Under the pieces are notes generated by a model. It ran no database searches. It was not told the DNA's origin and saw only the letters and a program-made list of their open reading frames with translations. Shown here piece after piece: positions 12,402 to 63,776 of a stretch of 64,000 nucleotides of DNA. Origin of the DNA: Candidatus Latescibacterota bacterium (GTDB lineage Bacteria > Latescibacterota > UBA2968 > UBA8231). The stretch lies in the NCBI GenBank assembly GCA_965217585.1, contig OZ244561.1, positions 3,264,001 through 3,328,000 of the forward strand. The letters run 5' to 3'. The translations under genes and the position numbers were made by a program. Position 1 is the stretch's first letter. Each line of letters starts with the position of its first letter.

Positions 12402-12566
12402 CGGAAATTCAAGAATCATCTATCTCAATATATTACAATAGGTTATGTGTAATATATCAGCTTCGCAGTGTTGGTTTGCGGCTGTTTACACGAATACGTA
12501 CCTTCGGGTCAGATAAGTAGCACTTGGCGGCGATTACCCAAACCAATTGTTCGGGTACAAATAGAT
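12402..12566 (+). promoter_or_regulatory. Cassette promoter plus attI-like module, copy 1 (core split by IS)
   Basis: -35 TTGCGG (12476), 17 bp, -10 TACCTT (12499); then ACCAATTGTTCGGGTACAAATAG. Homologous to 20445, 26320, 51783 and 63748. Confidence 0.7.
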
Positions 12567-13637
12567 TAGGACTTACGCAGTTGGATAGTTTAGGATAAGA
12601 TAGAAGCTACTCCCCCTCCGCCGCGAGCCAGTCCGATGAACCCAGCCAAGTGTGCAGACCACGACTACATCCACTTCCTGATCGCCGCTCAGTGCGCCTT
12701 CAGTTGTACTGAGGCCGCCCGCTGTCATCCTGAAGGGGGCCCTACGCCATCCCATGACGCCTTCACGCGCCTGCTCACAAGACAGCCTCCCGATACCGAG
12801 GCGTTGTGGCGAGAGACGCAGGGACTGGTCACCCTTCAGGGCGGCGTGTTGGCTCTGGACGATTCCACCTTGGACAAGCCCTATGCCAAGCGGATCGAAC
12901 TGGTGACGCGCCATTGGAGCGGCAAACATCACCGGGTGGTCTTGGGCATCAATCTCATAAGTATGGTCTGGTCGGACGGCCTCGCTTGCATTCCCTGCGA
13001 CTTCCGCGTCTATGACAAGCCGATCGGGGGCCACAACAAGAACGAGCACTTCCGGGCGATGCTGGCCAGTGCCCAAGCGCGCGGCTTTCAGCCCGAGTGC
13101 GTGGTGTTCGATAGCTGGTATGCTTCCCTCGACAACCTCAAGCGGATTCGCGCCTACGATTGGTCTTGGCTGACGCGCCTCAAGGCCAACAGACAGGTCA
13201 ACCCCGATGGGAGCGGCAACGTGGCGATCGGCTCTGTTGCCATCGAACCGGAAGGCCGGCGGGTGCATCTCAAGGGCTATGGGTTCATCCAGGTGTTTCG
13301 GACGGTCTCGGCAAACGGAGACGCGCAATACTGGGCAACCAACGACCTGGAGATGGCTGTCAGCCAGTTTGAGGCGTGGTCCAAGCGGGCGTGGTCCATT
13401 GAGACCTACCACCGAGGCCTCAAGCAGTGTTGCGGCGTCGAGCAGGCGCAGGTTCGGTCGGCACGGGCGCAGATGAACCATATCGCGTTGTCGATTCGCG
13501 CCTTCGTGCGGTTGGAGGTGCATAGACTCCAAACCGGTGTCAGTTGGTATGAAGCCAAAAGGAACATCATCCGAGAGGCTGTCCGGCTGTATCTGCAACG
13601 ACCACTGCACAGGCTCAACTCAACTGCGTAAGTCCTA
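12567..13637 (+). mobile_element. IS701-family insertion sequence
   Basis: TIRs TAGGACTTACGCAGTTG / CAACTGCGTAAGTCCTA; 5-bp TSD TAGAT. Confidence 0.9.
12636..13631 (+). CDS. IS701-family transposase
   Basis: LDDSTLDKPY, FDSWY, RAWSIETYHRGLKQ DDE motifs. Confidence 0.92.
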   Translation: MNPAKCADHDYIHFLIAAQCAFSCTEAARCHPEGGPTPSHDAFTRLLTRQPPDTEALWRETQGLVTLQGGVLALDDSTLDKPYAKRIELVTRHWSGKHHRVVLGINLISMVWSDGLACIPCDFRVYDKPIGGHNKNEHFRAMLASAQARGFQPECVVFDSWYASLDNLKRIRAYDWSWLTRLKANRQVNPDGSGNVAIGSVAIEPEGRRVHLKGYGFIQVFRTVSANGDAQYWATNDLEMAVSQFEAWSKRAWSIETYHRGLKQCCGVEQAQVRSARAQMNHIALSIRAFVRLEVHRLQTGVSWYEAKRNIIREAVRLYLQRPLHRLNSTA

Positions 13638-13733
13638 TAGATATGAAAATTCAGCATTTTGCAGTATATCTACAGAATAAAGGACGATATACCGCATATC
13701 CGCCGTTCAATCACTAGTTAAGTATCCGAAGCC

Positions 13734-15068
13734 ATGAATAGAGAGCATTTCTTGGACGATCTTGAGAAGTATCCGGTTGAGGGTGGAGATATTCCACCGA
13801 TCCTAGATCGAAGCGACGGGGGCTATGCATCTTGGCACATCAGGCTCCTTGCATGTCTTCAACGCGAACAGATGATATGGAGAAGCCAACCGGAGTACCC
13901 CTACCTTTCCGTCGACGCTGAAGCACTGAACCGGTGCCACTCAACCATCGGCAGGGCCGTTCTACTCGCTCATGAGTTCTTGTTGCAGAACCTAAGCCGA
14001 AAAGAACTAGGCCGGATTATGGCCGCTGGCATAGTCGGTGGCGGGGTATATGCAGGCATTACACCGACATCAGACTTCTTACCGGAAGGGGCAGCCAACC
14101 CCAATGCCCACTGCCTCTGCGCCTTCAACCATCCTCTATACATCAGATCTACACCGTTCATGGCAGAGGGTATCTGGCTCCTCGTCCTAGACGAAGACCA
14201 ACCTTATCAGTACGCTGTAGCGGATATAGATAGCTCTGAGTCGCACTCATTCCCTCTGTTGAACTCCCTGCCGTTGGGACCATATAGGGAGCTCCAGTCT
14301 CACTTTCGTGAGCGGTATAGACAGAGCCGAAAACCACTCAATGCAGATGAGCTTGCAGAGTTGGATGAATTCATCAGTACTGTTTTCGAGGCTAACCAAA
14401 AGGTCTTGAAAGAGGCTGAGCACTACCACCTGCGTCACAAGGACAAAAAGTCCCGGTACACCCATCCAGCGCCATGGCTCACACCGTTTGGTAGGCTGGT
14501 GCATGACGAGGAAGGTGAGCCCAGCATCGAGCACAACCTCGCACTCCTTCACTGCACGAAGGCTATCGAGGAGTTCAACTGTGCCAAGAACGCGGAGGAC
14601 AGCGGGAACGATGGGCGAAAAGTGATTCATGGAGCATACTGCATAATCGCCTTGGCAGCTTTTATTGAGGCGGCTGCTAACCGAGCGTACTTCGTTTCAA
14701 AGGGTTCACATGTCGTCTCGACTGATAACCAGACTTCGACCGCCCGCCTTCTCTCTGAAGCCGAGCAAATAGCACATAGACGGGACGATGCCCCACAGCG
14801 ACGGTTTAAACGGTTGAAACAGAGTTCCGAAGAATACAGAGCACTAGAGGAAGTGCGTCAGATTCGGAATAAGCTGATTCATGCAACTGAAGCTGCTGTC
14901 CCGATCGATCAAGGAGTGGGAGCATCAGAGCTTGTCGCCTGTCTCACGGTTGAGAATTGCAGGCGTCTGCTGTCTCTTGTGAGGAAGGCCCTAGTTCACA
15001 TTGTTGAACAGGTTCCTGAGATCGGTTTGCAGGTCCGACTCGACGAACAAGGTGAGATGGCTAGGTGA
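13734..15068 (+). CDS. Hypothetical protein with C-terminal HEPN-like motif
   Basis: AAFIEAAAN plus RNKLIH (Rx4H); first gene downstream of the attI-like copy 1. Confidence 0.6.
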   Translation: MNREHFLDDLEKYPVEGGDIPPILDRSDGGYASWHIRLLACLQREQMIWRSQPEYPYLSVDAEALNRCHSTIGRAVLLAHEFLLQNLSRKELGRIMAAGIVGGGVYAGITPTSDFLPEGAANPNAHCLCAFNHPLYIRSTPFMAEGIWLLVLDEDQPYQYAVADIDSSESHSFPLLNSLPLGPYRELQSHFRERYRQSRKPLNADELAELDEFISTVFEANQKVLKEAEHYHLRHKDKKSRYTHPAPWLTPFGRLVHDEEGEPSIEHNLALLHCTKAIEEFNCAKNAEDSGNDGRKVIHGAYCIIALAAFIEAAANRAYFVSKGSHVVSTDNQTSTARLLSEAEQIAHRRDDAPQRRFKRLKQSSEEYRALEEVRQIRNKLIHATEAAVPIDQGVGASELVACLTVENCRRLLSLVRKALVHIVEQVPEIGLQVRLDEQGEMAR

Positions 15069-15269: not shown

Positions 15270-15297
15270 GACATCGACATCTTCGGGGAGAAGTGAC

Positions 15298-15729
15298 ATG
15301 GAGCGAGTCTTCAGAGCGCTCGGTACGGTCCTCGTGGCGGTCGTTCTCTTGGCGATAATTGGCCTGGGGATCGGGACGACGCAGCCGATGCCCGATAACG
15401 CCGTGGTCCTGCTTGATCAGTTGGAAGAGACCTACATCGCACCGCCTTGTCTTGAGTTCTCCGCAGAGCAGGAGGCCGAGTTTTCAAGACTCATGGGGGA
15501 CGTCTTCACCTTCGAGGATTCCATCGGCGTCTTCGAGGATATGACGGGGCTTCGTTACGCGGATGCGGCTAGGGCACGTCGCCTTAAGTTTCGTCCTGAT
15601 CCAGACTGCCGTGATCAAGGTGCTTTCACCAGCGATGGACGCAGCTTGACAGGGCTCGTCCTTCAGAACTTGGGAGTTCTCCCGGAGAAGCCCCGACGGT
15701 GGACCGACGACGGAGGCTGGAACTGGTAG
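15298..15729 (+). CDS. Membrane-anchored hypothetical protein (gene cassette)
   Basis: N-terminal TM helix; cassette ends GTTAGGCGAC / GTCGCCTAAC are complementary. Confidence 0.7.
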   Translation: MERVFRALGTVLVAVVLLAIIGLGIGTTQPMPDNAVVLLDQLEETYIAPPCLEFSAEQEAEFSRLMGDVFTFEDSIGVFEDMTGLRYADAARARRLKFRPDPDCRDQGAFTSDGRSLTGLVLQNLGVLPEKPRRWTDDGGWNW

Positions 15730-15751: not shown

Positions 15752-15842
15752 GCCTAACAGGTCCACTAGCGACTTCGGCCACTGCGTGGCCTCCACGAAC
15801 ACCTGCTTACGGCGGGCGTCACTAGTGGCCAAGGCTTTAGGT
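15752..15842 (+). other. attC site (R' degenerate)
   Basis: GCCTAAC...CCACTAGCGAC / GTCACTAGTGG...TTTAGGT. Confidence 0.75.
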
Positions 15843-15873: not shown

Positions 15874-17559
15874 ATGCATCTGAAATCAATAATGCTCAGG
15901 AACTTTGGTCCTTTTCGAAAGTACGAGATACAGTTTCCGGAAGAAGACCAAGTGTGTGCTCTACTTACAGGAAAGAACAATGAAGGAAAGTCCTGCATCA
16001 TACGAGCACTTAAGCTGTTAAACGCTGCAACAAAGGTAGTTGGTCAGAATCGCCAAATAATCAATATCAATGGTGATGAGAGATATCGACTGTTACAGGT
16101 AGATTTAGATGGTGTTGTAGTTGGACGATTGGTACATAATTATCAGGAGACTATTGCAGAAATCAGAGGGACATTCAGCAATGGGATTAGGATAGAAGTG
16201 TTTCTTGATCCGATGCAAGACATTGTATATGCCGATCATATTGGTCAAGTGCCCAAAGAATTACGTGAAAGCATCGGCTTTATCCCTCCTCTCGGCCCAG
16301 TTGCAGAAGTTGAAGAACCGCTTACAGAACGCTACCTCCGATCTGTCGTTGATACTTCTCTTGCCCCGAGACACATAAGGAATCACTTCCGATTTATCTT
16401 AAGTAAAGATGAATTTGAACTTGTCCAAGACATTGTATCCAATACTTGGTCCGATGTAACCCTTCTTCGATGCGAACACGATGTGACTCAGAATCAGCTA
16501 AACACCTTTTACAAAGAAGGTCGTTGGGAACGAGAAATTGCGTGGGCAGGGCAAGGTCTTCAAGTTTGGTTTCAGATAGTTTCACACTTAGTTCGACTAC
16601 GGGACAAGCTACTAATAGTCTTTGATGAACCAGAAGTCAATTTACATCCGGAAAAACAGAATGATCTTGTTAGGTTAGCCCACGAGTATTGCCTAGGAAG
16701 TGCAATTATCGCTACACATTCTGTTGAGCTTATGAACAATGTCAGCGTTAGTCACATAGTTCATGTAGAGAAATCCAAAAGTAAACCAAAACCAAAGTCA
16801 ACTGATGATAGAACCCATCTTGAAATAGTGCGGTCTAGTATTGGTAGCAATTTCAACCTGATTGCCTCGCAATTTGATGACGTTGATGCTCTTGTATTTA
16901 CTGAAGATACTCAAGACTTCAAGACGGTAATAGCATTCGCGTCTCGACTCCGTATCAACGCTCGGTTATTCAATATTCCTTTGCATGGTTTTTCTGGGTA
17001 TAAAAAAGTAATCTATTACAAAGATGCCTATAATCTGCTAATTGGCAGAGAAATTGACTGTAGAGTTTTGTTGGATAGAGATTTTTACCCTGTTGACTAT
17101 TTAGAATCAGTGCGAAATGAGATGGAGAAACAAAGTATTCAGGTATTGTTTACTCCAGGAAAAGAAATAGAAAACTGTTTCTTGAGTCCCAAAATAATAG
17201 ATAAAATTATACCCAGAAATGAACGTAGTAGATTCGACACATTCTGGAACGAAGTCTACGAAGATCTTTACTATGATTGCTACGGGAGTTTTCTGAAACT
17301 ACATGAGGATTTTTTACCTTCGGGATTGGATACAAAGACTATAACTACTAAATATGGTCCTCAATTCAATAAAAAGTGGCAATCGCATGAATATCGACAT
17401 TTGTTAGTGTCAGGAAAAGTAGCTTTGAAAAAATTGCGAAAGTTCTATCGGGATACTACAGGAGACAACCTATCTCTCAAGCTTCTCCTTGATAGAGTTA
17501 AGCAATCGGGAGATTCAGATCTATCTCTAATAACTAAATCAATCTTTGGAAATGGATAG
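15874..17559 (+). CDS. OLD-like ATP-dependent nuclease (ABC ATPase plus TOPRIM-like)
   Basis: GKNNEGKS, AGQGLQ, FDEPEVNLHP, ATHS; C-half VFTED, LLDRD, KEIEN; AT-rich. Confidence 0.75.
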   Translation: MHLKSIMLRNFGPFRKYEIQFPEEDQVCALLTGKNNEGKSCIIRALKLLNAATKVVGQNRQIININGDERYRLLQVDLDGVVVGRLVHNYQETIAEIRGTFSNGIRIEVFLDPMQDIVYADHIGQVPKELRESIGFIPPLGPVAEVEEPLTERYLRSVVDTSLAPRHIRNHFRFILSKDEFELVQDIVSNTWSDVTLLRCEHDVTQNQLNTFYKEGRWEREIAWAGQGLQVWFQIVSHLVRLRDKLLIVFDEPEVNLHPEKQNDLVRLAHEYCLGSAIIATHSVELMNNVSVSHIVHVEKSKSKPKPKSTDDRTHLEIVRSSIGSNFNLIASQFDDVDALVFTEDTQDFKTVIAFASRLRINARLFNIPLHGFSGYKKVIYYKDAYNLLIGREIDCRVLLDRDFYPVDYLESVRNEMEKQSIQVLFTPGKEIENCFLSPKIIDKIIPRNERSRFDTFWNEVYEDLYYDCYGSFLKLHEDFLPSGLDTKTITTKYGPQFNKKWQSHEYRHLLVSGKVALKKLRKFYRDTTGDNLSLKLLLDRVKQSGDSDLSLITKSIFGNG

Positions 17560-18733
17560 GGCTTTGGTGCATGAATCGGTGTTTTTTCGGTTGCTCGTTT
17601 GAATAAAAACAGGCTCCTCAGTAGATTGAGCACGACTCTCGCTAAAAAACCCATGCCTTCTCTTCCAAGGAACCTGTCATGTCCAACGTATCGTCTTGCC
17701 CGTCTTCGGTCAAGCCCTGTCGCCGTCGCTCGAAGGTCGGGTATCGGGTGCGTAATTGGCCGGACTACGATGCGGGGCTACAACAGCGCGGTAGCTTGAC
17801 CGTGTGGTTCACGCCCCAAGCGGTCGAAGCGTGGTATTATCAAGGGCCGCCCCAACGGGGGGCCCAATATACCTTTTCGGATGGTGCCATCCAAACGGCG
17901 TTGACGCTGCGGCTTTTGTATCACTTGCCGCTGCGCCAAACCGAGGGGTTCGTCGCTTCGGTGTTGGCCTTGATGGGCTTGGCGGTACGGGTGCCGGATC
18001 ACACGACCCTATCGCGGCGTCAGGCCGACTTGGCGGTGGCGATGCCTACACAGCCCAAGGATCAACCCCTGCACTTGGTCGTCGACGCGACGGGGTTGAA
18101 GGTGTATGGCGAAGGCGAGTGGAAGGTGCGTCAGCACGGCTGGAACAAGCGGCGCACGTGGCGCAAATTGCACCTCGGCGTGGATGAAGCCACCGGCGAG
18201 ATCGTTGCACAGACCTTGACGACGAATAGCCAAGATGATGCGGGGCAGGTCGAGCCGTTGCTGGATCAAGTCGAAGCCCCCATCGGAGCGGTGGGCGGGG
18301 ATGGAGCCTATGATCGGCGCAAGGTGTTTGAGGCGTTGGCCGCGCCAGACCGGGGCCCGCCGATGCGTCCGATCATTCCGCCGCGCAAAGACGCCAAGAT
18401 TGAGCAACATGGCAACCGCAAAGCCGAGCCGTTGCCGCGCGATGAGACGATCCGAACCATCCGTAAACGGGGCCGTCGAACGTGGAAAAAAACCAGCGGC
18501 TATCATCGCCGCTCCATCGTCGAAACCCAGATCGGCCGCTACAAACAGATCCTCGGCGACACCTTGCGTGCCCGAACCCTACCCCACCAACAGACCGAAA
18601 CACGGGTGGGCTGTGCCGTGCTCAACCGGATGCGGGCGTTGGCCAAACCCGAGTCCTATCCGATAACCAAAAAAGCATAAATCACACGAGACAGGGGGCA
18701 ACACGGCCCCGCCGGTTTTCATGCAACAAAGCC
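17560..18733 (+). mobile_element. IS5-family (IS903-group) insertion sequence
   Basis: TIRs GGCTTTGGTGCATGAA / TTCATGCAACAAAGCC; 9-bp TSD AATGGATAG. Confidence 0.92.
17679..18680 (+). CDS. IS903-group transposase
   Basis: NWPDYDAGLQQRGSLTVW, VDATGLKVYGEGEW, WRKLHL, GDGAYD, SGYHRRS. Confidence 0.93.
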   Translation: MSNVSSCPSSVKPCRRRSKVGYRVRNWPDYDAGLQQRGSLTVWFTPQAVEAWYYQGPPQRGAQYTFSDGAIQTALTLRLLYHLPLRQTEGFVASVLALMGLAVRVPDHTTLSRRQADLAVAMPTQPKDQPLHLVVDATGLKVYGEGEWKVRQHGWNKRRTWRKLHLGVDEATGEIVAQTLTTNSQDDAGQVEPLLDQVEAPIGAVGGDGAYDRRKVFEALAAPDRGPPMRPIIPPRKDAKIEQHGNRKAEPLPRDETIRTIRKRGRRTWKKTSGYHRRSIVETQIGRYKQILGDTLRARTLPHQQTETRVGCAVLNRMRALAKPESYPITKKA

Positions 18734-18863: not shown

Positions 18864-18954
18864 GCCATGCATACAAACCATAGGCAGTTCACATCGACAC
18901 ATCGATACGGACCATCGCTGTTTGCAGCCAAGAGTTTTGTAGGATCTAAGAGAT

Positions 18955-19235
18955 ATGAAGCTGTTGACTAGTGACTCATTCAAGAAAGCAAAGACTTTCG
19001 TGAGGGATCAGGGCCGGGAATTAGAAAGACGGCTTCTATCGTATTATTTCGATGATGGAGCTCCAGTCGCGGTTCTAGACGAACTTGCTAGCTATCAGAA
19101 TCAGGATGGCGGTTTCGGCAATGGCCTTGAACCCGATCTCCAATTGCCCGATTCATCCGTTATCACGACGACCATTGCGCTACGCATTCTCAAAGAGGTC
19201 AAAGCGACTAGTAATGACGAGATTGTCCAGAAAGG
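18955..19235 (+). pseudogene. Truncated copy of the prenyltransferase/squalene-oxidase-repeat gene
   Basis: Near-identical to 21378-21658 (YQNQDGGFGNGLEPD); cut off by an IS remnant. Confidence 0.85.
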
Positions 19236-20366: not shown

Positions 20367-20443
20367 TCGCCCTGCACTTGGGGTCGCCGTCTGGCGTGCT
20401 AGCGGCGCTAGCGGAGGCTGCGGACGTGCCCTGCTGGATCCAA
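20367..20443 (+). pseudogene. Second, internally deleted fragment of the enolase-family gene
   Basis: Matches about 11118-11262 minus 69 bp lost between two GCGGCGCT repeats. Confidence 0.8.
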
Positions 20444-20444: not shown

Positions 20445-20588
20445 CGGAAATTTTAGAATCGTTCTATCTTAACAAATTACAATAGGTTATGTATGATATC
20501 TCGACCTCGCGATATTTGGTTGCGACTGTTTATAAAGGCACGTACCTTCGGGTTAGATAGTAGCATCTAGCGGCGATTATCCGAATCA
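20445..20588 (+). promoter_or_regulatory. Cassette-promoter module, copy 2 (attI core missing)
   Basis: -35 TTGCGA (20520), 17 bp, -10 TACCTT (20543); homology stops before the core. Confidence 0.7.
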
Positions 20589-20619
20589 CATGAATTGGAT
20601 ACCCCAATGGAGCACATAG

Positions 20620-21324
20620 ATGCATAGGCCACAGGCTATTCTCTTCGATTTCATAAATACCCTCGTAAGCAATTTGAAGTTCGATCCCCTCGCAGGTAAC
20701 ACTCGCCTTCTCGAATATGTAGTGGATCGAAAAGGTATATCACCTGAAGAGGTAACGACTGAGGCAAAAAGGCTCGATAGTGAGGTTTCTGTTGAGGGTA
20801 ATTCAATCATCGAATTCACTAATCATCAGTTTAATCGACTACTCTTTGATCGACTCGGCATCACCTTTCGTGAACCCATGGAGGTAATCGAACTGGAATT
20901 CTGGAAAGAATGTATGCTTTTCTCTCCTGAGCCCGACATTGCCGATGTATTGACCGCCTTATCTGCACATAATTTGAGAATGGGGGTAGTAAGCAACCAT
21001 CCAGGATCTGGAACGGTCCTCTCCTGGGAACTTCAACGTCATGAACTGCTCAACTATTTTGAATTTGTTATCTCTAGCGCCGATTATGGGATAAGAAAGC
21101 CCCATTCCGTGATTTTCACCTCAGCGGCCACCCGATTGGGCATGGCACCTTCAGAGATATGGTATGTAGGCGACACGTTGGAGACCGATATGGTGGGGGC
21201 GAAGCAGTGCCACATGAGTGCAATCTGGTATAACAGGCGACAACAAGAGCCTGCGGATATCCCTGTTGATGCAGAGGTTAGGAGCTGGGAGGAATTCCTG
21301 GAGTTGGCTCAAACGTATTTGTAG
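20620..21324 (+). CDS. HAD-superfamily hydrolase
   Basis: LFDFINTL, VVSN, RKP, YVGDTLETD. Confidence 0.85.
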   Translation: MHRPQAILFDFINTLVSNLKFDPLAGNTRLLEYVVDRKGISPEEVTTEAKRLDSEVSVEGNSIIEFTNHQFNRLLFDRLGITFREPMEVIELEFWKECMLFSPEPDIADVLTALSAHNLRMGVVSNHPGSGTVLSWELQRHELLNYFEFVISSADYGIRKPHSVIFTSAATRLGMAPSEIWYVGDTLETDMVGAKQCHMSAIWYNRRQQEPADIPVDAEVRSWEEFLELAQTYL

Positions 21325-22097
21325 GAATAACCGTAATCGCTGTTTGCAGCCAAGAATTTTGTAGGAGTTAAGAGATTATGAAGCTGTTGACTAGGGACTC
21401 ATTCAAGAAAGCAAGGACTTTCGTGATGGAGCAGGGCCGGGAATTAGAAAGACGGCTTCTATCGTATTATTTCGATGATGGAACTCCAACCGCGATCCTG
21501 GACGAACTTGCTATCTATCAGAATCAGGATGGCGGTTTCGGCAATGGCCTTGAACCCGATCTCCAAATGCCCAATTCATCCGTTATCACGACGACCATTG
21601 CGCTGCGCATTCTCAGAGAGATCAAAGCGACTAGTGATGATGAGATTGCCCGCAAGGCAATCCAGTATTTGATAGCCGAATACGATTCGACTCAGAGCAG
21701 ATGGCCTATCGTCCTACAAGCGGTGGATGAATACCCCCATGCGCCGTGGTGGAATTTTGAGAATACGGCGGATACTTTTGGCAATTTCCTGGCCAACCCT
21801 CGTGCGGAGGTCGTGGGCTATCTACATGAATATCACGAGTTGGTACCTACAGACCTGACTAAACAGCTCACGGTAGAGGTTATAGAGCATATAAAAACAT
21901 TACCAGATGAGATGAACATGTACGATTTTATCTGCTGTGTTCATCTGGTTGAGACGGCTGCCCTGCCCCGATCCTCGAAAGATACGTTGGCGGAAATACT
22001 AATTCAGAGAGCACACTACGTCGTCGTTCATACGCCGGAAGAATTGATGGGGCCCTCTGCCAGACCGCTCTGGTTAGCTTCTACACCCACCTCGTTG

Positions 22098-26134: not shown

Positions 26135-26173
26135 GCTTGACTATCATCCGCAACTCCCAAGCTGGCACTGCAA

Positions 26174-26242
26174 CCATAACACGTCCACTTGCGCTGCGGC
26201 GCATCGTAGCCACACATAGGTCTTAGCAGGGGCTCGTTTATG
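26174..26242 (+). other. Degenerate attC-like site
   Basis: CCATAACACGTCCACTTGCGCTGCGG resembles the family left arm; right arm is poor (GTTTATG). Confidence 0.45.
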
Positions 26243-26319
26243 CGCCATCAACATCACGACGAAATCGCCGCTGAACTACCGCGTCGCCTGAAACAGCCTA
26301 TCCCTGGGGGAGGGCACCG

Positions 26320-26476
26320 AATGTGCTATCTCAAGCTATCACAAGGGGTTACGTAGAGTACCCCAGCCTCGCGGGTGTTGGTTGAGACTGTTTACAAGAA
26401 GACGTACCTTCGGGTTAGATAAGCAGCACCTAACGGCGATTACCCTAACCAATTGTTCGGGTACAAGCAGTTATCG
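26320..26476 (+). promoter_or_regulatory. Cassette promoter plus attI-like module, copy 3 (intact)
   Basis: -35 TTGAGA (26382), 17 bp, -10 TACCTT (26405); TTCGGGTACAAGCA-GTTATCG core at 26470. Confidence 0.78.
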
Positions 26477-26526
26477 GCAAATCGCCCGAACCCTACGGAG
26501 CATGCCATTTCCAAAGAGGGCAATGG

Positions 26527-27039
26527 ATGTCTGAGGCATCAGGGCCAGCAAGGAAATACGAAGCATTTCTGGTAGAAACGGGAGGACAGGATGTTCTCGT
26601 CACCTGGTTTCCTTCTCACGATGTGCCGGAAGGGCAACGCCACGGCTCTGGTGGTATTTGCTTGACAGACAACGGCGAGGTTGTGTTGGCTACGCAAGAT
26701 GGGGAAACGTGGGGATTCCCGGCAGGCAGACCGGAAGGAAGTGAGTCGTGGGAGGAAACCCTGCGGCGGGAGATGAGAGAGGAAGCATGCGTTGAGGTCA
26801 GAGAGGCAAAGCTTCTGGGATTCTCACGCGGAGAGTGCATCAGGGGGCACGAAAAGGGTCTGGTGCTCGTGCGCTCGATCTGGCTAGCGAGAGTCGAGCT
26901 CAATGAGTGGGCGCACGAACACGAGACGCTGGCGCGCAAACTGGTTCAACCTGAAGGAGTCCTTGGGGAGCTGGCGCTGGACGTTTTTCTACCACTGCAC
27001 TATCGCGCTCTCATTGCTGCTGGCCTATTGAAGGAGTAA
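26527..27039 (+). CDS. NUDIX hydrolase (gene cassette)
   Basis: PAGRPEGSESWEETLRREMREEA; cassette ends GTTATCGGCA / TGCCGATAAC. Confidence 0.85.
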   Translation: MSEASGPARKYEAFLVETGGQDVLVTWFPSHDVPEGQRHGSGGICLTDNGEVVLATQDGETWGFPAGRPEGSESWEETLRREMREEACVEVREAKLLGFSRGECIRGHEKGLVLVRSIWLARVELNEWAHEHETLARKLVQPEGVLGELALDVFLPLHYRALIAAGLLKE

Positions 27040-27120
27040 GCAACCGAGGCCACACTCGGTTTGCGAGTTCTCGTTTGCACCCCACGCCTCGTCTCAAAGA
27101 CGGGCTGCGAAGGCGACTGC

Positions 27121-27212
27121 CGATAACAGCACGTTTTGCGCTGCGCCGCCCTTCAGGCGGCTTGGCCTTCGGCAACGCCTAGTCGGCGTTCGCAAACCGG
27201 AAAACGTTATAG
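27121..27212 (+). other. attC site
   Basis: CGATAAC...GTTTTGCG / CGCAAACCGGAAAAC...GTTATAG. Confidence 0.82.
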
Positions 27213-27247
27213 GAAGTCGGCCCCGCAAAGCTCACCAAGAGGGAACT

Positions 27248-28129
27248 ATGCCATATGCTTCTATAAACGGCTTCCGGATGTTCTACGATGTCCGCGGGGA
27301 GGGCGAGGTCGTCGTGTTCATACACGGAGGATTTCCTTCCCTTGACATGCATCTCCGTGCGCAATCGAGTGGTAAGTGGGGATGGGAGATGGATTTCACA
27401 TCAGATTTCCGATTTGTGATGTATGATCGACGGGGCTGCTGGCTGTCTTCTCGTCCGGAGTCTGACTATGACATTGAGAATCAGGCACGGGATTTGTCTG
27501 AGTTGCTAGACCACCTTGAAGTGGAAAAAGCACACGTGATTGGTTCCTCTGCAGGGGGTCCAATTGCAATGCTGTTTGCAACTATCTACCCGGAGAGAGT
27601 TAAAACACTCGTATTGGCTGGTACCGCTGCGAATCTTTGGCCAGAGGAAGACCCGGTTACCCAAATTGTCAAAGAACAGTTGGGAATCCTTGAGAAACAG
27701 GATGCGGCGGCAGCTTGGGAGAACCGACCAAAGAGTGTTGAGCTTTCTCTAGATGTCCTGTGGGAATGCGAAGAGATGAAGGAAATAGGAGCCCTAGCAG
27801 AATACGAAGAGCGAATAGAGAAACTTGTAGCGAGGTCCAGTTTACCAGAACGTGTGCAATGGTATGGAATTCAGTTGCAAGCGATTGGCGCGTACCTTGA
27901 CAGAGATATAACTGTCGAATGCGGTCAAATAGGGGCTCCTACACTTGTGGTTCACGGGGCTAAAGACAGAGAAGTGCCCGTGGATTGGGGCCAGGATCTC
28001 GCAACGAAGATTCCCAGAGCCGCATTCCGGATGTATCCGGATGAGCCACACAGCCTTGTCCACAGAAGTGGTGGGGTGCGTGAGAATCTGATGGCGTTTT
28101 TCCGAAAAAGAGGGGATAGAGAGTCATAG
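27248..28129 (+). CDS. Alpha/beta-fold hydrolase (gene cassette)
   Basis: FIHGG, YDRRG, GSSAGG nucleophile elbow, PTLVVHGAKD, H near the C-terminus. Confidence 0.88.
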   Translation: MPYASINGFRMFYDVRGEGEVVVFIHGGFPSLDMHLRAQSSGKWGWEMDFTSDFRFVMYDRRGCWLSSRPESDYDIENQARDLSELLDHLEVEKAHVIGSSAGGPIAMLFATIYPERVKTLVLAGTAANLWPEEDPVTQIVKEQLGILEKQDAAAAWENRPKSVELSLDVLWECEEMKEIGALAEYEERIEKLVARSSLPERVQWYGIQLQAIGAYLDRDITVECGQIGAPTLVVHGAKDREVPVDWGQDLATKIPRAAFRMYPDEPHSLVHRSGGVRENLMAFFRKRGDRES

Positions 28130-28173
28130 AAATCCCAGAGAAGGCGAAGTCGACATCGTATAACACGGTGCCC

Positions 28174-29439
28174 CAGGGCAATCGCATTATAACTGTCCAT
28201 GTGCCAATAGGTTCGCCAAATATTTGTGGTCCCACCCGGCCTTGAGCCGTTTGGTTTGCATGCCGGCTTTGGTCGTTTTGTCTTGCTGGAGTAGATTGAG
28301 CGCGATGTGGCGTATAACGGCCATATTTTCGGGGCCATGCCCCCGGCGTATGCGGGACTGATCTTCGTTGAAGACGACATCGAGGATCCAGTGTAATGAA
28401 TTTTCAATGGCCCAAGGACCGCGCACGGCCTGTCCCAATCGTTGGGCGTTGTTGTCCAGGGTGGAGATATAGTAGCGTCGTTCGACCGAAACGCTATCGC
28501 CGCGGTGCCGGGTGGCCTCGACCATACCGAACAGGCGTAAGCCCGGCCAGTGAGCATGATCGGCAAAAGCCTCAATCTGGTTGGTGGTCCAGTACTGCCG
28601 CGTTTCTCGACGCCCGTGGTTTTCGTCCTGAGTAAACCAATAATCTACGGTGGGGTCGGCGTGGAGTTTGGAGTCGGAACGGTCAAAGAGTTGTTGAAGA
28701 TGGGCGTGGAGTTGGGGTTGATTCTCCTTGACGGCCAGCACGTAGTCGGCCTCTTGTTCGACGACCTGTTCGGCCGTGCTTTTATGACACCCCAAGGCAT
28801 CGGGGGTGACCAGGCAGCCTTTGAGGTCTAAAACACGTAATAATTCGGGGATGAGCGCAATTTCTTCGAGGGCTTCTTCACCATGGAATTGCCCCAAGAC
28901 CAGCCGATTTTTTACCGCCCAAGCATGCACCCTGTGGATGGCGGCTTGGCCCGAGTCTGTATCGTAGGAGCGGCGCAGTGTCTTGCCATCCAGCGGCACG
29001 ATCTCGCCCTCGTCGGCCAACAGGGGCGTCAGCGATTGCACCCAAGCGGTAAAACAGTCTTGGAAATGCCAAGGCGAAATACGGGCCAACACACGACCGA
29101 AGGTATCATGCGAGGGGATGCCGTTCGGCACGGCTAGAAAGGTCTTAAGCCAGTCGGCTTTAGCCCGGCCAAATTCGGCGATCGCCACCCAGTTGTCGGC
29201 CCCACAAATGGAGCCGCACACCGCAATCATGAGAATATCAATCAAGCGATGCGCCCGACAACGCTCCATACGCGGGTCGGGGATATCGGCCAAATAATCC
29301 AGCAACCCCGAAGACGATGAGGACATGAAGAAACACTCCAGGCAAGAGGGAAATGGGAGGACATGAACCTAAGCTCCATAGAACGGCCAAAAGTAACATA
29401 ACCGCATGGTAAAAATTAACTTATAATGCGATTGCCCTG
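28174..29439 (-). mobile_element. ISAs1-family insertion sequence
   Basis: TIR CAGGGCAATCGCATTATAA; 10-bp TSD CACGGTGCCC. Confidence 0.92.
28187..29326 (-). CDS. ISAs1-family transposase
   Basis: IPDPR, GIPSHDTF, DGKTLRRS, WAIENSLHWILDV.F.ED. Confidence 0.93.
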   Translation of the reverse strand: MSSSSSGLLDYLADIPDPRMERCRAHRLIDILMIAVCGSICGADNWVAIAEFGRAKADWLKTFLAVPNGIPSHDTFGRVLARISPWHFQDCFTAWVQSLTPLLADEGEIVPLDGKTLRRSYDTDSGQAAIHRVHAWAVKNRLVLGQFHGEEALEEIALIPELLRVLDLKGCLVTPDALGCHKSTAEQVVEQEADYVLAVKENQPQLHAHLQQLFDRSDSKLHADPTVDYWFTQDENHGRRETRQYWTTNQIEAFADHAHWPGLRLFGMVEATRHRGDSVSVERRYYISTLDNNAQRLGQAVRGPWAIENSLHWILDVVFNEDQSRIRRGHGPENMAVIRHIALNLLQQDKTTKAGMQTKRLKAGWDHKYLANLLAHGQL

Positions 29440-29517
29440 CACGGTGCCCTTGGCTTAGATCCCTTCGGGCCTTCGCCCAACCGTTGCGCGGTTCGGGGGC
29501 ACTGAAACGTTATACGA

Positions 29518-30437: not shown

Positions 30438-30472
30438 GAAATTTCAAAAATAGGAGGTTCAAGATCAGCTCT

Positions 30473-38898: not shown

Positions 38899-38907
38899 CT
38901 TTCCTCT

Positions 38908-44393: not shown

Positions 44394-44475
44394 CTCTAAC
44401 AACGTAACCCCAGCTTCGGGGTGTCCGGCTCTTTGCGCAACCGCTGCGCAGTTCGGGGACACAGAAGCGTTACCG
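44394..44475 (+). other. attC site
   Basis: CTCTAAC...AACCCC / GGGGACAC...GTTACCG; core CAACCGCTGCGCAGTTCG. Confidence 0.7.
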
Positions 44476-46244: not shown

Positions 46245-46268
46245 TTAGTTAGTTTGTCAAGGATACCT

Positions 46269-51782: not shown

Positions 51783-51812
51783 CAGTTAACTGCTTATATC
51801 CGAATGTAACGA
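51783..51812 (-). other. attI-like core, copy 4
   Basis: Minus strand TTCGGATATAAGCAGTTAACT versus TTCGGGTACAAGCAGTTATCG of copy 3. Confidence 0.6.
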
Positions 51813-55945: not shown

Positions 55946-56750
55946 GATGACGCGCGCTGGATCGGGATAGGCGTGATAGGGCGGTACGCGAAGGGGCTTT
56001 CTCCCCTCAATCCAGTTTTGCATAGTTGGATAGATAATCTCTAGCATCCTTACTGTATATTCTCTCCAAAGACTCCAACGCAAAGAAAAGCTCTGCTCTT
56101 TCTTGCCATCCCGGCAAGAGATTGCCATCCGACCGATAGCCCTCCAGAAAGCTCTCTTGGAAATTGTTGAATGCCTTCACCCGATCCTCAGAGGCACCAG
56201 CGATCCAACGATTTTTCATAATTCCAAAATCTGCCTCTGGGGGCAAAGCTAATGCGCGGTCGAAGTCTACCAGGCCCCCAAAGTGCCACCCATCTTTCTC
56301 TTGAGAGATCAGGATATTCTTGGGATCAATATCTGCCTGAACAAGACAAGAGGATGTTTCCGAAGACAGCAATGTCTTGGCTCTTTTTTGAAAAAAACGC
56401 TCCAAATTTTCGCAATCATCCTCCAACAGAATACCATGTTTTCTATACAAATCAAGGACGAAAGTCACCCTGTGTACAAATGCCTCATCAGAGGTTTCTG
56501 CAATACTCCAAAGAATAGGTTTAAAATGTGGCATCGGTAAAGACCAATCTGGGATTGGCAGATCTCCATGGAAACGAAAGGTTATGCTATGGAGTGTTGC
56601 AACAGCTTCGCCCACTTCGTATCCGATTTGCCGAAGACGATCTTCTGAAAGTTCCGAAAGAATCATTACCAGCGGCTCACCCCTCACACATTCAGTAACG
56701 AAATATGGACGCCCGAGATTCTTGCCGTCAGGATGGGAAACGTAGACTAA

Positions 56751-57607
56751 GAAGCTGTTGAGTTAAAAGCTATTTTGTATGTTATTTGTCTCAATGGCTC
56801 TTTTCGATAGGAGGCTTGTGTTATGCCTGGGTATCCCAGTGACGTGACCGATGCAGAATGGGTTTTGCTGGCTCCTTTCTTTGCTCGCCCTGACCCTCGG
56901 GGCAACCCCGGCAAGTATGCCAAACGCGAGGTGGTCAATGCCATTTTATATGTCGTCAAAGGGGGTATTCCGTGGCGGATGCTGCCGCTTGATTTTCCCC
57001 CCTGGGATACCGTCTATGACCATTACCGACGCTGGAATCAGCGTGGCGTGTGGGAACAAGCCCTGGACGCGCTGAATGAGCGCGCCCGTCACAAGCAGGG
57101 CAAAAACGAGCATCCGACCTATGCCTTGATCGATTCGCAATCGGTTAAAACCCAATATGCCAGTCAGGATCGAGGCGTGGATGGGGGAAAAAAAGATCAA
57201 AGGACGTAAACGCCACCTCGCCACCGATACGCTGGGTAATATGCTGACCGTCCAAGTACATGCCGCCAATGTGGCCGATACTAGCCAAGGATGGGACGTA
57301 TGTGATCGGGTCGCGGAAAAGTATGATTCGGTCGAAGCCTTCTGCGGCGACCAAGGCTATCGCGGTACCACCGTTGAATTCGTTGAAAACCTGTTGGGGT
57401 TGCGACTCGATATAGCGGATAAACCAACCCAAGGGTTTCAAGTGGTGCCCAAACGCTGGATCATCGAACGAACCTTGGCTTGGTTGGGTGGATTTCGACG
57501 CTTGGCCAAAGACTTCGAAATCCTCACCCAATCCGCAGAGAACATGATTCGTATTGCCATGATAAAGATTACGGTCGCTAAATGCATCTGAATAACTCAA
57601 CAGCTTC
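56751..57607 (+). mobile_element. IS5-family (IS1031-like) insertion sequence
   Basis: TIR GAAGCTGTTGAGTTA; 3-bp TSD TAA. Confidence 0.9.
56823..57591 (+). CDS. IS5 transposase in two frames (probable programmed frameshift)
   Basis: YPSDVTDAEW, IDSQSVKT / KIKGRKRH, RWIIERT; G5-A8 run at about 57183-57195. Confidence 0.88.
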
Positions 57608-57927
57608 TAAGGGGACAGGCACCTGAGCATTTGATGCCAGGGTAAGAGCAAAGGTTTCTCGGGCACAGAGATAACCATCATGTTTAGACTCTGCGCCTTT
57701 GTTTACAATTTTAAGAGACAATTCTTGTTCTGAGTCTTCCAGAAGAAGCCTATATAATTCATTGGGGCCGCCTAGCGGAAATTGCTTTAGCTGAGATACT
57801 CGAACGTCTGGCAGATCCTGCATCAATAGTTCTTGTACTTCAGATGATGATAATCTGAGTCGTTCACGAGATAATCCTGAATAAGCCCGAGAAATGGCTT
57901 TCAATTGATCTTCTGAGAGAAATTCTA

Positions 57928-58899
57928 TCATGCCAGAGTGCCAATGCGATTCAGCCAATTCCAACCCGCAATTTTCCGCAGCAACTCCATCCTCTCCGGG
58001 ATGTGATAGTTCAACAGCAGTCGTCGCAGCACAGCTACTGTTAGAAACCACCGGAGGACGCCGTCTTCCCCAATGGGTTCGGGCTTGTCTGTCGTTGCTA
58101 TATACGTCTCGACAAATTGCTTGGCGAGGTCCAGCGATACTTCGGGGAAAAGACATTCCCGACCTCCGAACTGGAGTGACGCGAATGCCACATCGTAGAG
58201 CGAGTAGTCAATGACAGCCATGTCGAAGTCCCACACTGTGGCGATCTTCGACTCCCATATCCGCAGGTTAGCAGGGCGGTAGTCCTGGTGCGTGATCGAC
58301 CGCATTTCCCACTCATCGCATAGTGCCTTCACAGCGGTGGCGTTGGATTGTACGAAGCGGAGCTGAGATTTAAGGAATGCTGTGTCATCCTCACTTAGCT
58401 CGTTCCACCGGAAGGCTCCAGCAATTTTCTCCGACGATTCAGCCCATCGGGTCGAGGGTATGTAGTACCAACCCAAGTCCTCTCTTTCTGATTCGGCTTG
58501 GAGTTTATCCCCGTATCTGCGACCTGCCGAGTGTAGCGCCGCTAGAGTCTGGGCTGCCTCAGTAATCAGATCACGGGAATCCCACGGAGGATGCTCGTCG
58601 GATGGCATGTAGGGGTTCAACACCCACCAGTCTTTCCCTCCCCAATAGCAGTAGCTTCCATCTAGTGTCTGCACCGGCAGTGAAACTTGTCTAAAACCGT
58701 TGTTCTTGAGGACTTCCATTAGCTGGAACTGATAGCTCTTTACCATTCTGTCTGCTTGGAACCGAGAGCAGGACAGGACGAATTGCCCCTGAGACGATTC
58801 TATGAAGAAATGGTTGCTGAAATGCGCCCGCGATTCAACCAACCGCAGATTAGTGAGACCGTAGGCGGCGGTGGCTATGTCGTTCCAGCGATTGTCCAT
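57928..58899 (-). CDS. Phosphotransferase (APH/homoserine kinase II-like)
   Basis: LAALH, HQDYRPANL, WDFD, YDVA. Confidence 0.85.
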   Translation of the reverse strand: MDNRWNDIATAAYGLTNLRLVESRAHFSNHFFIESSQGQFVLSCSRFQADRMVKSYQFQLMEVLKNNGFRQVSLPVQTLDGSYCYWGGKDWWVLNPYMPSDEHPPWDSRDLITEAAQTLAALHSAGRRYGDKLQAESEREDLGWYYIPSTRWAESSEKIAGAFRWNELSEDDTAFLKSQLRFVQSNATAVKALCDEWEMRSITHQDYRPANLRIWESKIATVWDFDMAVIDYSLYDVAFASLQFGGRECLFPEVSLDLAKQFVETYIATTDKPEPIGEDGVLRWFLTVAVLRRLLLNYHIPERMELLRKIAGWNWLNRIGTLA

Positions 58900-58917
58900 G
58901 GCGGACTCGGAGAGCGC

Positions 58918-59175
58918 TTAGCGTTTTGCGAAGCAGAAGTTGGCCCGGTTATCTTCGGGGATGTCGGTCAGAAAATACTGGATCTTAAAGTTGAGCGGGC
59001 GGCTGTCCTGCGCAACGCGGAACTCGCGCAACGAGGCACCCCCGTCGGTATGCCAGTCGAAAGGCATGTCCCCACTGGGATAGCGGACGTAGATCACCGT
59101 GCCCATAATCTGGAGATAGGGACCCATCAGGTCGACGATGACGCCGAAGGTGTTAGGATGGTCGACAAAAGGATG
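58918..59175 (-). pseudogene. Internal fragment of a PhyH-family dioxygenase
   Basis: VDHP..FGVIVDLMGPYLQ, WHTDGG, KIQYFLTD; both ends missing. Confidence 0.75.
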
Positions 59176-59182
59176 ATTCAGT

Positions 59183-60112
59183 CTACGGTCTGTCCAGTCG
59201 AGAGACTATAGCGCATATCTCAGTCAGGAAGTCTGGTACCCAGGTTTTGGATATAGGAATTGCGTCCAAACCAAATTCAAAGATCCATTGCAGACAGTGG
59301 ACGCTCCAGCAGAGGCCACCCATGTCAAGGTGCCAGTCTGTAACTTCCTCCTGTATTCCTTGATCTTTTAGCGCAGACCTGTAGGCACCGATTAGTGTTT
59401 CCCGAGAAATATGTCGGTCTTTCCCTTCGTTAATCAGGCAATAAAGATCTCCGAGGTGAGGGCTTATACGCGCATTTGCCCAATCGACGGGAACAATGCG
59501 TCCGCTGACATTTAGAAGATTCTTGGCGTGATAGTCATTGTGATTCAGTGTGAGGGGAAGCTCTTGGTATAACCGGTCCAAGTGTCTTGAGAATGAGTTG
59601 ACCTGTCTCCCTAGGACATGAACCATTTTCCGGTGCTCCGAATCTGCGTACTCAGTCACGTAGTCAAAGTCAAGCAGAAGTTGGTCTTTGGTCAGCAAGT
59701 GCCTTTGAAGATCAGAATCACGGATCTTGCCGATCCTGTCTGCAGAAGCCCGAATATCCGCGAGCTTGTGGGCTGCCTCTAGGAAAGTTGACTTTGACGG
59801 CTGTTGTTCGAGGTCTGAACCTCTCAGATCCTCCATAAGCAGGATATACTCAGAATCGCTCGCGTAGCTTGCGAAGACAGTCGGTGCATCTATGGCGAGA
59901 GGGATCAGACACTCTCGGTAGATCTCCAACTCCGTAGGGCCTTTAGTGGGAATTCCCCGCTTGGCGATTAGGGTACGGCCCTCATCGTCTAATGTTAGCC
60001 GAAACACTTGCGAAAGAGACCACTCCCGGAGAGGATCTACACCTACGACTTTGGCAGGTTTGAGAGAGTCGGCAATCAACTCCAACCAATCAGGAAAACG
60101 ATTCGAGGTCAT
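59183..60112 (-). CDS. APH-family phosphotransferase
   Basis: LLMEDL, TLNHNDYHAKNL, VDW, DL. Confidence 0.85.
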   Translation of the reverse strand: MTSNRFPDWLELIADSLKPAKVVGVDPLREWSLSQVFRLTLDDEGRTLIAKRGIPTKGPTELEIYRECLIPLAIDAPTVFASYASDSEYILLMEDLRGSDLEQQPSKSTFLEAAHKLADIRASADRIGKIRDSDLQRHLLTKDQLLLDFDYVTEYADSEHRKMVHVLGRQVNSFSRHLDRLYQELPLTLNHNDYHAKNLLNVSGRIVPVDWANARISPHLGDLYCLINEGKDRHISRETLIGAYRSALKDQGIQEEVTDWHLDMGGLCWSVHCLQWIFEFGLDAIPISKTWVPDFLTEICAIVSRLDRP

Positions 60113-62827: not shown

Positions 62828-63633
62828 TACTGGCTGAGGCACACCCGTTGCTGAGTGGCAATTTCCTTTTCATGGGTATAGTGCGCCGATTCGACCAATT
62901 CGCGCGTTTCGGGTGCCAGCCGCTCTTTGACCGCCGCCGGAATGGGGCCGGCCTGGCGGTGGTGTGGCCGGTAGCGCAGCGTCAGCACCCGGCGCTGGCG
63001 GTCGGCGGATTTCCAGGGCAGGACCCCGTGGGTCATGCATTCAGGCATAACCACCACATCCCCGGCCGCGGGCGTGATATTGATGACCCCCGGCGGTACC
63101 TCCCCTTCGATGAGACCCTGGGAAAATAACTGCGGCGGCCGGTCAAACTGGACTTTGTGCGAACCCGGCACCACTAGTAGCCCGCCATCACCGGGATGCA
63201 CATCGTCCAAGTAGGGAAACGCCACAAAGTCGTCGCAGTAGATACGGCCCTGGCGTACCTCGTAACGGGCGCTCTCAAAGCCGTAGTCTTCGCGGGCGCA
63301 GTGCAGCGGCACCGCCTCGGTGTGTCCGTCGGGATCGTCGACCATCAGGGTACCGCTGGCGAGCATGGGTTTGCCGTTGGTCAGCTCCAGCACGATGGGC
63401 CAGACTGCAGGCAGAAAGACCAGCTTTTCTAGCGCCCGGTCGAAGGCGAAGCCGTGAGCAAAGCCCTTGAGATTTTTTGATTGTCCGAAATGCGGCGGCA
63501 GGTCTTCCGGTGCGCTGCCGATGTAGCGCCTGACGGCCTCCGAAGCCGCATCTAGTTCCTCCGGAGTCAGGGCGTTCTTCAGGTGCAGAAAACCGCATAG
63601 ATCAAAAAGATAGCGTTGTTCTTCGGTCATCAT
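62827..63633 (-). CDS. PhyH-family dioxygenase
   Basis: YLFDLCGF, LHCA, DGGLLVVPGSHK, AGD...PECMTHG. Confidence 0.85.
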   Translation of the reverse strand: MMTEEQRYLFDLCGFLHLKNALTPEELDAASEAVRRYIGSAPEDLPPHFGQSKNLKGFAHGFAFDRALEKLVFLPAVWPIVLELTNGKPMLASGTLMVDDPDGHTEAVPLHCAREDYGFESARYEVRQGRIYCDDFVAFPYLDDVHPGDGGLLVVPGSHKVQFDRPPQLFSQGLIEGEVPPGVINITPAAGDVVVMPECMTHGVLPWKSADRQRRVLTLRYRPHHRQAGPIPAAVKERLAPETRELVESAHYTHEKEIATQQRVCLSQ

Positions 63634-63747
63634 CGTCAGCCTTGCCTTTCGTCAGAATAGCGAACTTGGACCCCGTTAGAATCAAAGAAGCTGTTTTCCG
63701 TTGTTGTCATAGTCCCACCTATAGCATGATGCTATTTATGCGAAACG

Positions 63748-63776
63748 AAGGTACATCGCTCGGTACACAGTCGCAA
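63748..63776 (-). promoter_or_regulatory. Promoter of the cassette-promoter family, copy 5
   Basis: Minus strand TTGCGA-CTGTGTACCGAGCGATG-TACCTT(CG), same layout as copies 1-3. Confidence 0.6.

Follow-up and report, generated by a model that had tools for sequence, protein, structure and literature searches.

How can runs of cassette-like genes be expressed in a genome that carries no integron integrase? The question is raised by the 64,000-nt stretch analysed here (the window; positions 3264001-3328000 of a single-contig genome of 7.32 Mb), which belongs to an uncultured, sponge-type Latescibacterota genus and in which a non-coding module recurs ahead of runs of small genes. An earlier sequence-only reading had described this module as a promoter joined to an attI-like site, present in up to five copies apart from any integrase gene. 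The core of that description was retained: the module is a conserved, non-coding, promoter-like unit that stands ahead of co-oriented gene runs and closes with a G|TT junction of integron type, and it is uncoupled from an integrase, as no intI was found in this genome. Judged by its sequence, the module is a genus-wide family of units of about 170-215 bp. We moderately favour the explanation that these are promoter units, either gene-less promoter cassettes or heads resembling the cassette promoter (Pc) of integrons, which keep cassette arrays similar to integrase-less attC clusters (CALIN) expressed.

As a repeat family the module is plain in the sequence. A repeat search of the window gave three direct repeats (12413-12560, 20457-20604 at 64% and 26319-26466 at 78%), on which blastn and nhmmer agreed, and the solid copies are accordingly three, beginning at 12402, 20445 and 26320 and all on the plus strand (Table 1). 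With copy 1 as query, six strong copies were found in the genome (the three of the window, a pair near 2.19 Mb and a single one at 1.78 Mb) together with partial ones. Genome-wide searches with profiles of the promoter part and of the 3' part matched copy 1 with E values of 1.4e-22 and 2.4e-8, and copy 3 with 1.7e-24 and 5.1e-11. The two minus-strand places that had brought the count to five were not of this kind. The one at 63748 ('copy 5') is a marginal, promoter-only remnant (E = 0.0063 genome-wide with the promoter-part profile), whose subfamily also occurs at genome position 620271. The one at 51783 ('copy 4') is a fragment of 18 bases that has neither the left palindrome arm nor the module promoter and was not recovered at E <= 1 when the genome was searched with the 3'-part profile; by our own arithmetic, an 18-mer with two mismatches is unexpected in 64 kb and not unexpected in 7.3 Mb, and the stretch may be a remnant of the 3' unit.

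The conserved parts followed the earlier description in most copies. Copies 1, 2, 3 and 5 carry the hexamers TTG(C/A)G(A/G) and TACCTT that had been proposed, each with a spacer of 17 bases. The proposed 3' motif, TTCGGRTAYAA.YAG(T/A)TA, is present in copies 1 and 3 and in the 18-base stretch (51804-51787, minus strand), while reading and alignment of the copies did not find it in copy 2. It had also been claimed that homology ends exactly at G|TT, which applies to most of 40 stacked ends of the family but not to copies 1 and 2. Copy 1 is cut in its 3' end by an insertion sequence (IS) with terminal inverted repeats GGACTTACGCAGTTG and a 5-bp target duplication, TAGAT (12562-12566 and 13638-13642); two further identical copies of this 1071-bp element occur at positions 92222 and 4913599 of the genome. 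The uninterrupted copy 1 ended ...CAAATAGAT|ATG, and its 'end of homology' is an artefact of the IS and no natural boundary. Copy 2 is truncated: it stops after the left palindrome arm (~20588), where it runs directly into the leader of a HAD hydrolase gene (20620-21324), and so lacks the G|TT end. The upstream flank of copies 1 and 2 is shared and derives from a gene fragment (duplicated context). An enolase-superfamily gene (10481-11485) has a 3' coding piece (11108-11319) that is repeated at 12129-12340 and 20367-20443, just upstream of these two copies, with 89-93% identity. Near 'copy 5', an exact 80-nt repeat was noticed (17559-17638 = 63921-64000); its first occurrence lies just upstream of an IS5-type transposase gene at 17679, and a second copy of that IS5-type element probably begins at the window end, directly upstream of 'copy 5' (IS end 63921-64000).

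The promoter part was compared among 25 aligned copies. The -35 triplet TTG is kept in 24 of them and the -10 pattern TA..TT in nearly all (variants TATTTT, TACTTT, TATCTT and TAACTT), while the spacer and the flanks drift. A reference for these hexamers was obtained from the tRNA genes of this genome, 28 of 48 of which have TTGnnn-16..18-TAnnnT within 120 nt upstream, vs 48 of 2000 random 120-mers. Nearly all of these tRNA promoters have a 17-nt spacer, their -10 boxes include TATATT, TATTTT, TAATTT and, three times, TACCTT, and one of them uses TTGCGA. The module hexamers TTGCGA-17-TACCTT thus appear to fit the promoter consensus of the organism itself. The pattern TTGACA-17-TAnnTT ahead of 28 of the 48 tRNA genes is useful in its own right for promoter calling in the phylum. 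By mechanical calls of open reading frames (ORFs), an ORF of 50 aa or more on the same strand follows 39 of 40 module 3' ends, with a median gap of 44 nt, and in the arrays of relatives modules and ORFs are all co-oriented. RNA data consisted of assembled contigs of relatives, in small shares, none of which covered the promoter part (26208-26411). Two contigs from one study match 26435/26441-26474 and then continue into unrelated sequence, the break being the same one as at the module 3' ends, after GTTAT. Contigs of relatives diverge from the window after 26204. Considering the conserved hexamers that are shared with tRNA promoters, the predicted promoter is credible, and from this promoter-like conservation we infer a transcription start and a promoter strength.

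The 3' end of the unit carries the second line of evidence. It is laid out as a 9-5-9 palindrome, TACCCGAAC-CAATT-GTTCGGGTA, followed by the 6-nt spacer CAAGCA and by G|TTA. When 40 of these ends were stacked, the sequence was conserved through CAAGCAGTTA and unrelated thereafter, and homology ended after GTTA in most copies. For copy 3 it had been claimed that the following bases complement the R'' of the next cassette, and this was confirmed: GTTATCGGCA (26470-26479), when reverse-complemented, gives exactly TGCCGATAAC (27118-27127). For the family as a whole, the 25 ends with GTT[AG] were taken and the next 2.5 kb was searched for the reverse complement of the eleven bases starting from G. 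Complementarity of 10/10 between G+TTAnnnnnn and a downstream R'' was found in 3 of the 25 copies, with the partner ~500-650 nt downstream: copy 3 of the window, the copy at genome position 620271 and the copy at L054:14058 in a relative (handles beginning with G or L denote relatives). In the permuted control, in which junction words were swapped between copies, 9 of 596 combinations reached 7/8 or better. Since three different cassettes are joined there, each with its own matching R'', the G site appears to have been used repeatedly. Two of the cassettes are homologous NUDIX cassettes of one attC family (at 26471 in the window and at ~620 kb in the genome); the 620-kb cassette starts TTATAGGAC and the window cassette TTATCGGCA, and the R'' of the 620-kb one is changed to match. 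Because first bases and R'' differ in step, the NUDIX cassette was probably once a circle that was joined at G|TT. This junction signature, read directly from the bases, marks the junction as one of true integron type, while recombination at the present day would be a further step from it.

What lies behind the module also agrees with cassette arrays. When first cassettes were compared across relatives, a shared flank downstream of a GFO/IDH/MocA oxidoreductase gene led in each of five species (G003, G020, G001, G005 and G002) into a complete module and then into a different sequence; the shared flank was judged from aligned sequence, and Pfam was run on two of the genes. G021 and G022 have a partial module without the 3' end on the same flank. 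In the genome studied here the true orthologue of the module-flanking oxidoreductase (2194708-2195844, 96% identical) has lost the adjacent module. The cargo behind modules includes NUDIX, GNAT, HAD, glyoxalase, APH-type kinase, isochorismatase and Abi-like proteins and parts of toxin-antitoxin systems, a content typical of integron cassette arrays. The attC-like sites at 27118-27212 and 28156..29517 are ~1 kb apart, and CALIN are delimited by at least two attC sites within 4 kb with no intI nearby, a definition that rests on the IntegronFinder attC model, whereas the sites here were identified by hand. As a separate observation, the arrays of relatives (L051-L055; G021, G022, G001 and G003) extend over 20-35 kb, with co-oriented ORFs of 70-470 aa and modules every 4-6 kb, and they start after a PhyH - EamA - GFO/IDH/MocA trio (observed in G021 and in G003, with Pfam confirming EamA and GFO/IDH/MocA in both).

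The family is restricted and old. The module was found in 17 of 24 genomes of the same genus and in none of 16 genomes from other genera of the class, with copies often clustered (for example, 5 within 16 kb in G021). An exact pattern scan for the palindrome over 185,579 species, one genome each, gave 18 loci, all in metagenome-assembled genomes whose titles name Candidatus Latescibacterota or, in the case of some sponge bins, 'Gemmatimonadetes bacterium'. The paralogues are old and show no recent burst, because the nearest relative of 24 of the 25 aligned copies is in another genome and the identity within genomes averages 76.7% (28 pairs); the best between-genome pair reaches 96.5%.

Integrase genes were searched in this genome, in the genus and in the phylum. 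No integron integrase was detected in this genome, where the best TIGR02249 score was 84 bits vs a cut-off of 265 and the three weak matches were XerD, a XerC-like protein and a generic tyrosine recombinase. IntI above the cut-off was absent from all 31 genomes of the genus; in G015 an intI is broken across two reading frames at the end of a contig, G017 has a weak partial match, and both genomes are without the module. Across the phylum, 17 of 168 genomes have IntI above the cut-off, other genera of the same family being among them. The arrays are thus integrase-less within an integron-bearing family. The module profile found nothing within 1.5 kb of intI at 21 loci of the phylum (best E 1.4), and the search through this genome and its relatives found no copy abutting intI. 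The attI label given by the sequence-only reading is consequently not supported, although the evidence is not decisively against it. We also considered that the module had replaced intI and attI at the locus of G015; this was rejected, the oxidoreductase beside the G015 intI being only 25% identical to the module-flanking one.

On this evidence, each promoter unit is composed of a predicted housekeeping-type promoter (TTGCGA-17-TACCTT) and a leader of ~60-80 nt ending in the palindrome, the spacer and G|TTA. Co-oriented arrays of small accessory genes with attC-like sites have such units as their heads and also in their interior. RNA polymerase would start a few bases after TACCTT and read into the cassette joined at G|TTA, each unit acting as a leading or internal cassette promoter that keeps its sub-array expressed. 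The G|TTA joints would have been made by IntI-type recombination, in the past or by an integrase in trans, and not by a resident enzyme. For the 3' site we lean towards an attC-derived origin (the short attC of a gene-less promoter cassette, with the geometry box-6-stem(9)-5-stem(9)-6-GTTA, in which GTTA stands at the place of the R' box, GTTRRRY in attC sites) rather than a multiplied attI; the right half of the 3' unit resembles the L'-spacer-R' half of the local attC sites, GTTCGGGG.CAC.GAA.CGTTA.

Several observations weigh against this explanation. A scan with the E. coli-type sigma-70 consensus found no promoter in copy 1 or copy 3, TACCTT having only 3 of 6 positions in common with TATAAT. 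At the junction, 15 of the 40 3' ends failed the GTT[AG] pattern, some by the pattern's own fault, and about a third have no GTT at the expected place. The palindrome stem is perfect, without extrahelical bases, and its sequence rather than its structure is conserved, which is odd for attC. Few copies have an R''-like box ending in AAC (for example copy 3, with ACCTAAC, and L040; one relative has ATCTAAC); most copies of the long form have AGC/GGC there, and the short form has AAG. The unit's left boundary, which is not sharp (about GTYAGATCTCAG), complements the R''-like box at the consensus level, not copy by copy. There are few canonical attC sites: a strict pattern for them hit the window 3 times, vs 0-5 times in 10 shuffles (two earlier strict patterns were too narrow or too loose). 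The attC-like sites at 15752..15842, which has a homologue in the relative L051, and at 44402..44475 fold with z of only -1.5 and -0.7, no better than shuffles. Many array junctions are plainly deletions at arbitrary points or IS insertions and not site-specific events, and the arrays must therefore also be decaying. Finally, the palindrome is strongly conserved although these genomes lack IntI, from which a present role other than IntI recombination may be suspected, perhaps in expression as an operator or an mRNA element.

This last point leads to the alternative that survives best, which we nevertheless regard as doubtful: the module would be a regulated promoter and leader with no role in recombination, the palindrome either forming a hairpin in the mRNA or serving a dimeric regulator as operator. 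It would have spread by segmental duplication and illegitimate recombination and would abut cassette boundaries as the descendant of an old cassette 3' end. The persistence of the module in integrase-less genomes, the gene-fragment-derived flank shared by copies 1 and 2 and the many deletion junctions are all consistent with it. So is the sequence conservation of the arms: among 20 copies, changes on both sides were seen in none of the 9 palindrome pairs (0 compensatory). Neither RNAalifold (covariation term -0.27 kcal/mol) nor pair counting in these copies gave covariation support for an RNA or single-stranded DNA structure, and 81 of 500 shuffles had a covariation score at least as high as the observed one. 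Among RNA-library contigs, one from a relative begins inside the palindrome and runs into the NUDIX gene, although contigs cannot show true ends. A regulated leader does not account for three different cassettes joined at the same G, each with a matching R'', nor for the likeness of the unit's right half to local attC sites. The module also has no linked regulator gene, and the palindrome does not occur outside the module context in this genome, where the 3'-part profile has 8 matches, every one a module copy or a 3' remnant of one.

Unlikely, in our judgement, is the proposal that each module is a working Pc-attI platform, several per genome, which still captures cassettes by means of an integrase in trans or of a recombinase other than IntI. 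The conservation of palindrome, spacer and GTTA in sequence and not in structure would fit an attI read as double-stranded DNA, the complete module stands at the array origin beside the same core gene in five species with a different follower in each, and the R'' signature is seen at three junctions. Against it, this genome has no IntI, its three weak matches being other recombinases; the genus genomes have none above the cut-off, the sole broken intI, that of G015, belongs to a genome that has no module, and nothing module-like lies at the 21 intI loci. One site per integron would be expected, in contrast to six strong copies here and five within 16 kb in G021. Internal module copies follow the R''-spacer-L'' half of a common attC family, and the joint between the two has a constant position near ...CTAGG rather than at G|TT, which does not fit a platform, and many 3'-only copies are deletion products. 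Two related ideas were rejected. The upstream attC left half and the module right half do not form one giant attC, the L boxes not being complementary, and the 3'-only copies are probably not ordinary attC sites of ORF cassettes, the two inspected looking like deletion derivatives of full modules. A working multi-platform system, in which palindrome, 6-nt spacer and G|TTA would be read as double-stranded DNA by a transiently acquired IntI or by a different enzyme encoded elsewhere, seems to us quite improbable; if it were true, each unit would capture and express cassettes, and this would be an integron architecture without a fixed integrase-attI core.

That the module is a miniature inverted-repeat transposable element (MITE), an IS end or a small RNA gene, as its repetition, its non-coding nature, its length of ~200 bp and the IS-rich region might suggest, is highly improbable, since it has neither terminal inverted repeats nor target duplications, shows no recent burst and has its nearest relatives in other genomes, has no Rfam 15 match at gathering thresholds in the whole window, lacks covariation as described above and is always co-oriented with a closely following ORF.

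Among known systems, the promoter units most resemble, by analogy, the promoter cassettes of Vibrio. Gene-less cassettes were reported to act as sense-strand internal promoters in large Vibrio arrays (Blanco et al., NAR 2024, PMC11014356), and as far as the available text of that paper goes the likeness lies in non-coding units within long arrays, a sense promoter and boundaries formed by cassette recombination sites. Against that text, the units here differ in forming one conserved family with 6-10 copies per genome, genus-wide and in arrays without integrase, in having a perfect, sequence-conserved 9-5-9 palindrome and not a typical attC as the 3' site, and in that the promoter is predicted from sequence. 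ORF-less cassettes from integrons of the oral metagenome were shown experimentally to have promoter activity (Sci Rep 2019, PMC6557892); in the accessible part of that report these too are promoters without an ORF in integron arrays, but in integrase-bearing integrons and in other phyla. CALIN, integrase-less attC clusters, are a defined class (Cury et al. 2016, PMC4889954), and in the portion of that study at hand they share with the present arrays the absence of intI and the frequent adjoining of IS elements, while a recurrent promoter unit distinguishes the arrays here from CALIN as described there. The Pc-attI platform, as set out in the same portion (PMC4889954), is similar in having a promoter directed into the array followed by a cassette-receiving G|TT site, with a first cassette that varies among relatives, and is unlike the module, which is not beside intI and has many copies, some of them inside arrays behind attC left halves. 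Moreover, DNA flanking intI in related genera showed no homology to the module. Matus-Garcia, Nijveen and van Passel (about 2012) reportedly described putative mobile promoters, in which unrelated genes share a homologous upstream region. The module is like them in placing the same promoter region before non-homologous genes, and here there are in addition a defined integron-type downstream crossover and old paralogues.

It follows that the sequence-only reading went too far in proposing an undescribed system, given that promoter cassettes (PMC11014356) and CALIN (PMC4889954) are both covered by the published texts as available to us. A literature search on integrons in Latescibacterota found nothing relevant within the parts of the sources that were accessible. 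The novelty is one conserved promoter-unit family, repeated within each genome and kept across a genus, in arrays that lack an integrase. Whether the genes of integrase-less cassette clusters are expressed was stated to be unknown in the available part of Cury et al. (PMC4889954). If the promoter explanation is true, arrays in one lineage would stay transcribed in blocks after loss of the integrase, by means of a promoter unit that has spread through integrase-less arrays and has been retained over a span that exceeds the age of the individual species in the genus. The idea of the promoter cassette would then be extended from Vibrio to an uncultured, sponge-type Latescibacterota genus. The site is compact (about 55 bp), and its role as attC, attI or operator is directly testable.

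Table 1. Module copies, cassettes and attC-like sites, in window coordinates.
Feature	Position	Strand	Details
Module copy 1	12402..12566	+	-35 TTGCGG 12476-12481; -10 TACCTT 12499-12504
Module copy 1, palindrome arms	12535-12543, 12549-12557	+	3' end interrupted
IS in 3' end of copy 1	12567..13637	+	1071 bp; DDE_5/DDE_Tnp_1 transposase ORF 12636-13631
attC-like site behind ORF 15298-15729	15752..15842	+	R'' GCCTAAC; long imperfect stem; R' mutated to TTTAGGT
Module copy 2	20445..20588	+	-35 TTGCGA 20520-20525; -10 TACCTT 20543-20548
attC-like left half (R''-spacer-L'') only	26173..26204	+	behind glyoxalase gene, upstream of copy 3
Module copy 3, complete	26320..26470	+	-35 TTGAGA 26382-26387; -10 TACCTT 26405-26410
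Module copy 3, 3' part		+	R''-like ACCTAAC 26428-26434; spacer 26435-26440; palindrome 26441-26449 and 26455-26463
Module copy 3, terminus		+	spacer CAAGCA 26464-26469; crossover between G26470 and T26471
First cassette behind copy 3	26471..27206	+	NUDIX gene 26527-27039; next crossover G27206|T27207
attC-like site behind NUDIX gene	27118-27212	+	95 nt; R'' TGCCGATAAC 27118-27127; bottom-strand fold -24.3 kcal/mol, z -4.1
Second cassette	27207..29509	+	alpha/beta hydrolase 27248-28129; attC-like site split by IS
Split attC-like site of second cassette			R'' TCGTATAAC 28156-28164; IS transposase 28187-29326(-); R' GTTATACGA 29509-29517
attC-like site behind MqsA-like helix-turn-helix gene	44402..44475	+	GTAAC ... 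GTTAC; right half resembles module 3' end (GTTCGGGG.CA...GTTA)
'Copy 4' (may be a 3' remnant)	51787..51804	-	18 bases, TTCGGATATAAGCAGTTA; 33 bases upstream of AhpC/redoxin ATG (gene 50615-51754)
'Copy 5' (marginal)	63736..63778	-	TTGCGA 63776-63771; TACCTT 63753-63748; promoter only

The window contains further features. At least six DDE transposase genes of several IS families, together with an IS4/5-type fragment (DUF4096), lie within ~45 kb (12636-13631, 17679-18680, 22123-23556, 28187-29326 on the minus strand, 31633-32691 on the minus strand, 33446-34612 and 56823-57209), and several of the IS elements of the window interrupt cassettes or attC-like sites. A duplication of ~315 nt, 93% identical, is present at 18914-19228 and 21336-21651 and comprises the leader and the N-terminus of an unnamed 250-aa ORF; its first copy is the fragment before a PhyH-type gene. 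Within the cassette run, a Stf0-type sulfotransferase gene followed by an overlapping gene for a LanC-like protein (29518-31630, plus strand) forms an unusual pair. In the minus-strand gene run, a 4-kb part (56007-60112) holds three genes for APH-family phosphotransferases of 226, 323 and 309 aa.

A block of large genes has a third-position GC content of 0.69-0.83 vs mostly 0.43-0.73 in the cassette-like genes. Its part at 35555-42647 (minus strand) encodes an amidohydrolase, a hydantoinase/oxoprolinase and an S15 peptidase, and its part at 45468-49873 (plus strand) consists of three genes; the block looks like core genome between two accessory stretches. At the beginning of the window, a BREX-like defence cluster (179-7729, plus strand) was recognized, with a DNA methylase (179-2020), an AAA_15/AAA_21 ATPase with DUF3696 (2024-3931) and a PglZ-domain protein (4968-6962), with unnamed ORFs between them.

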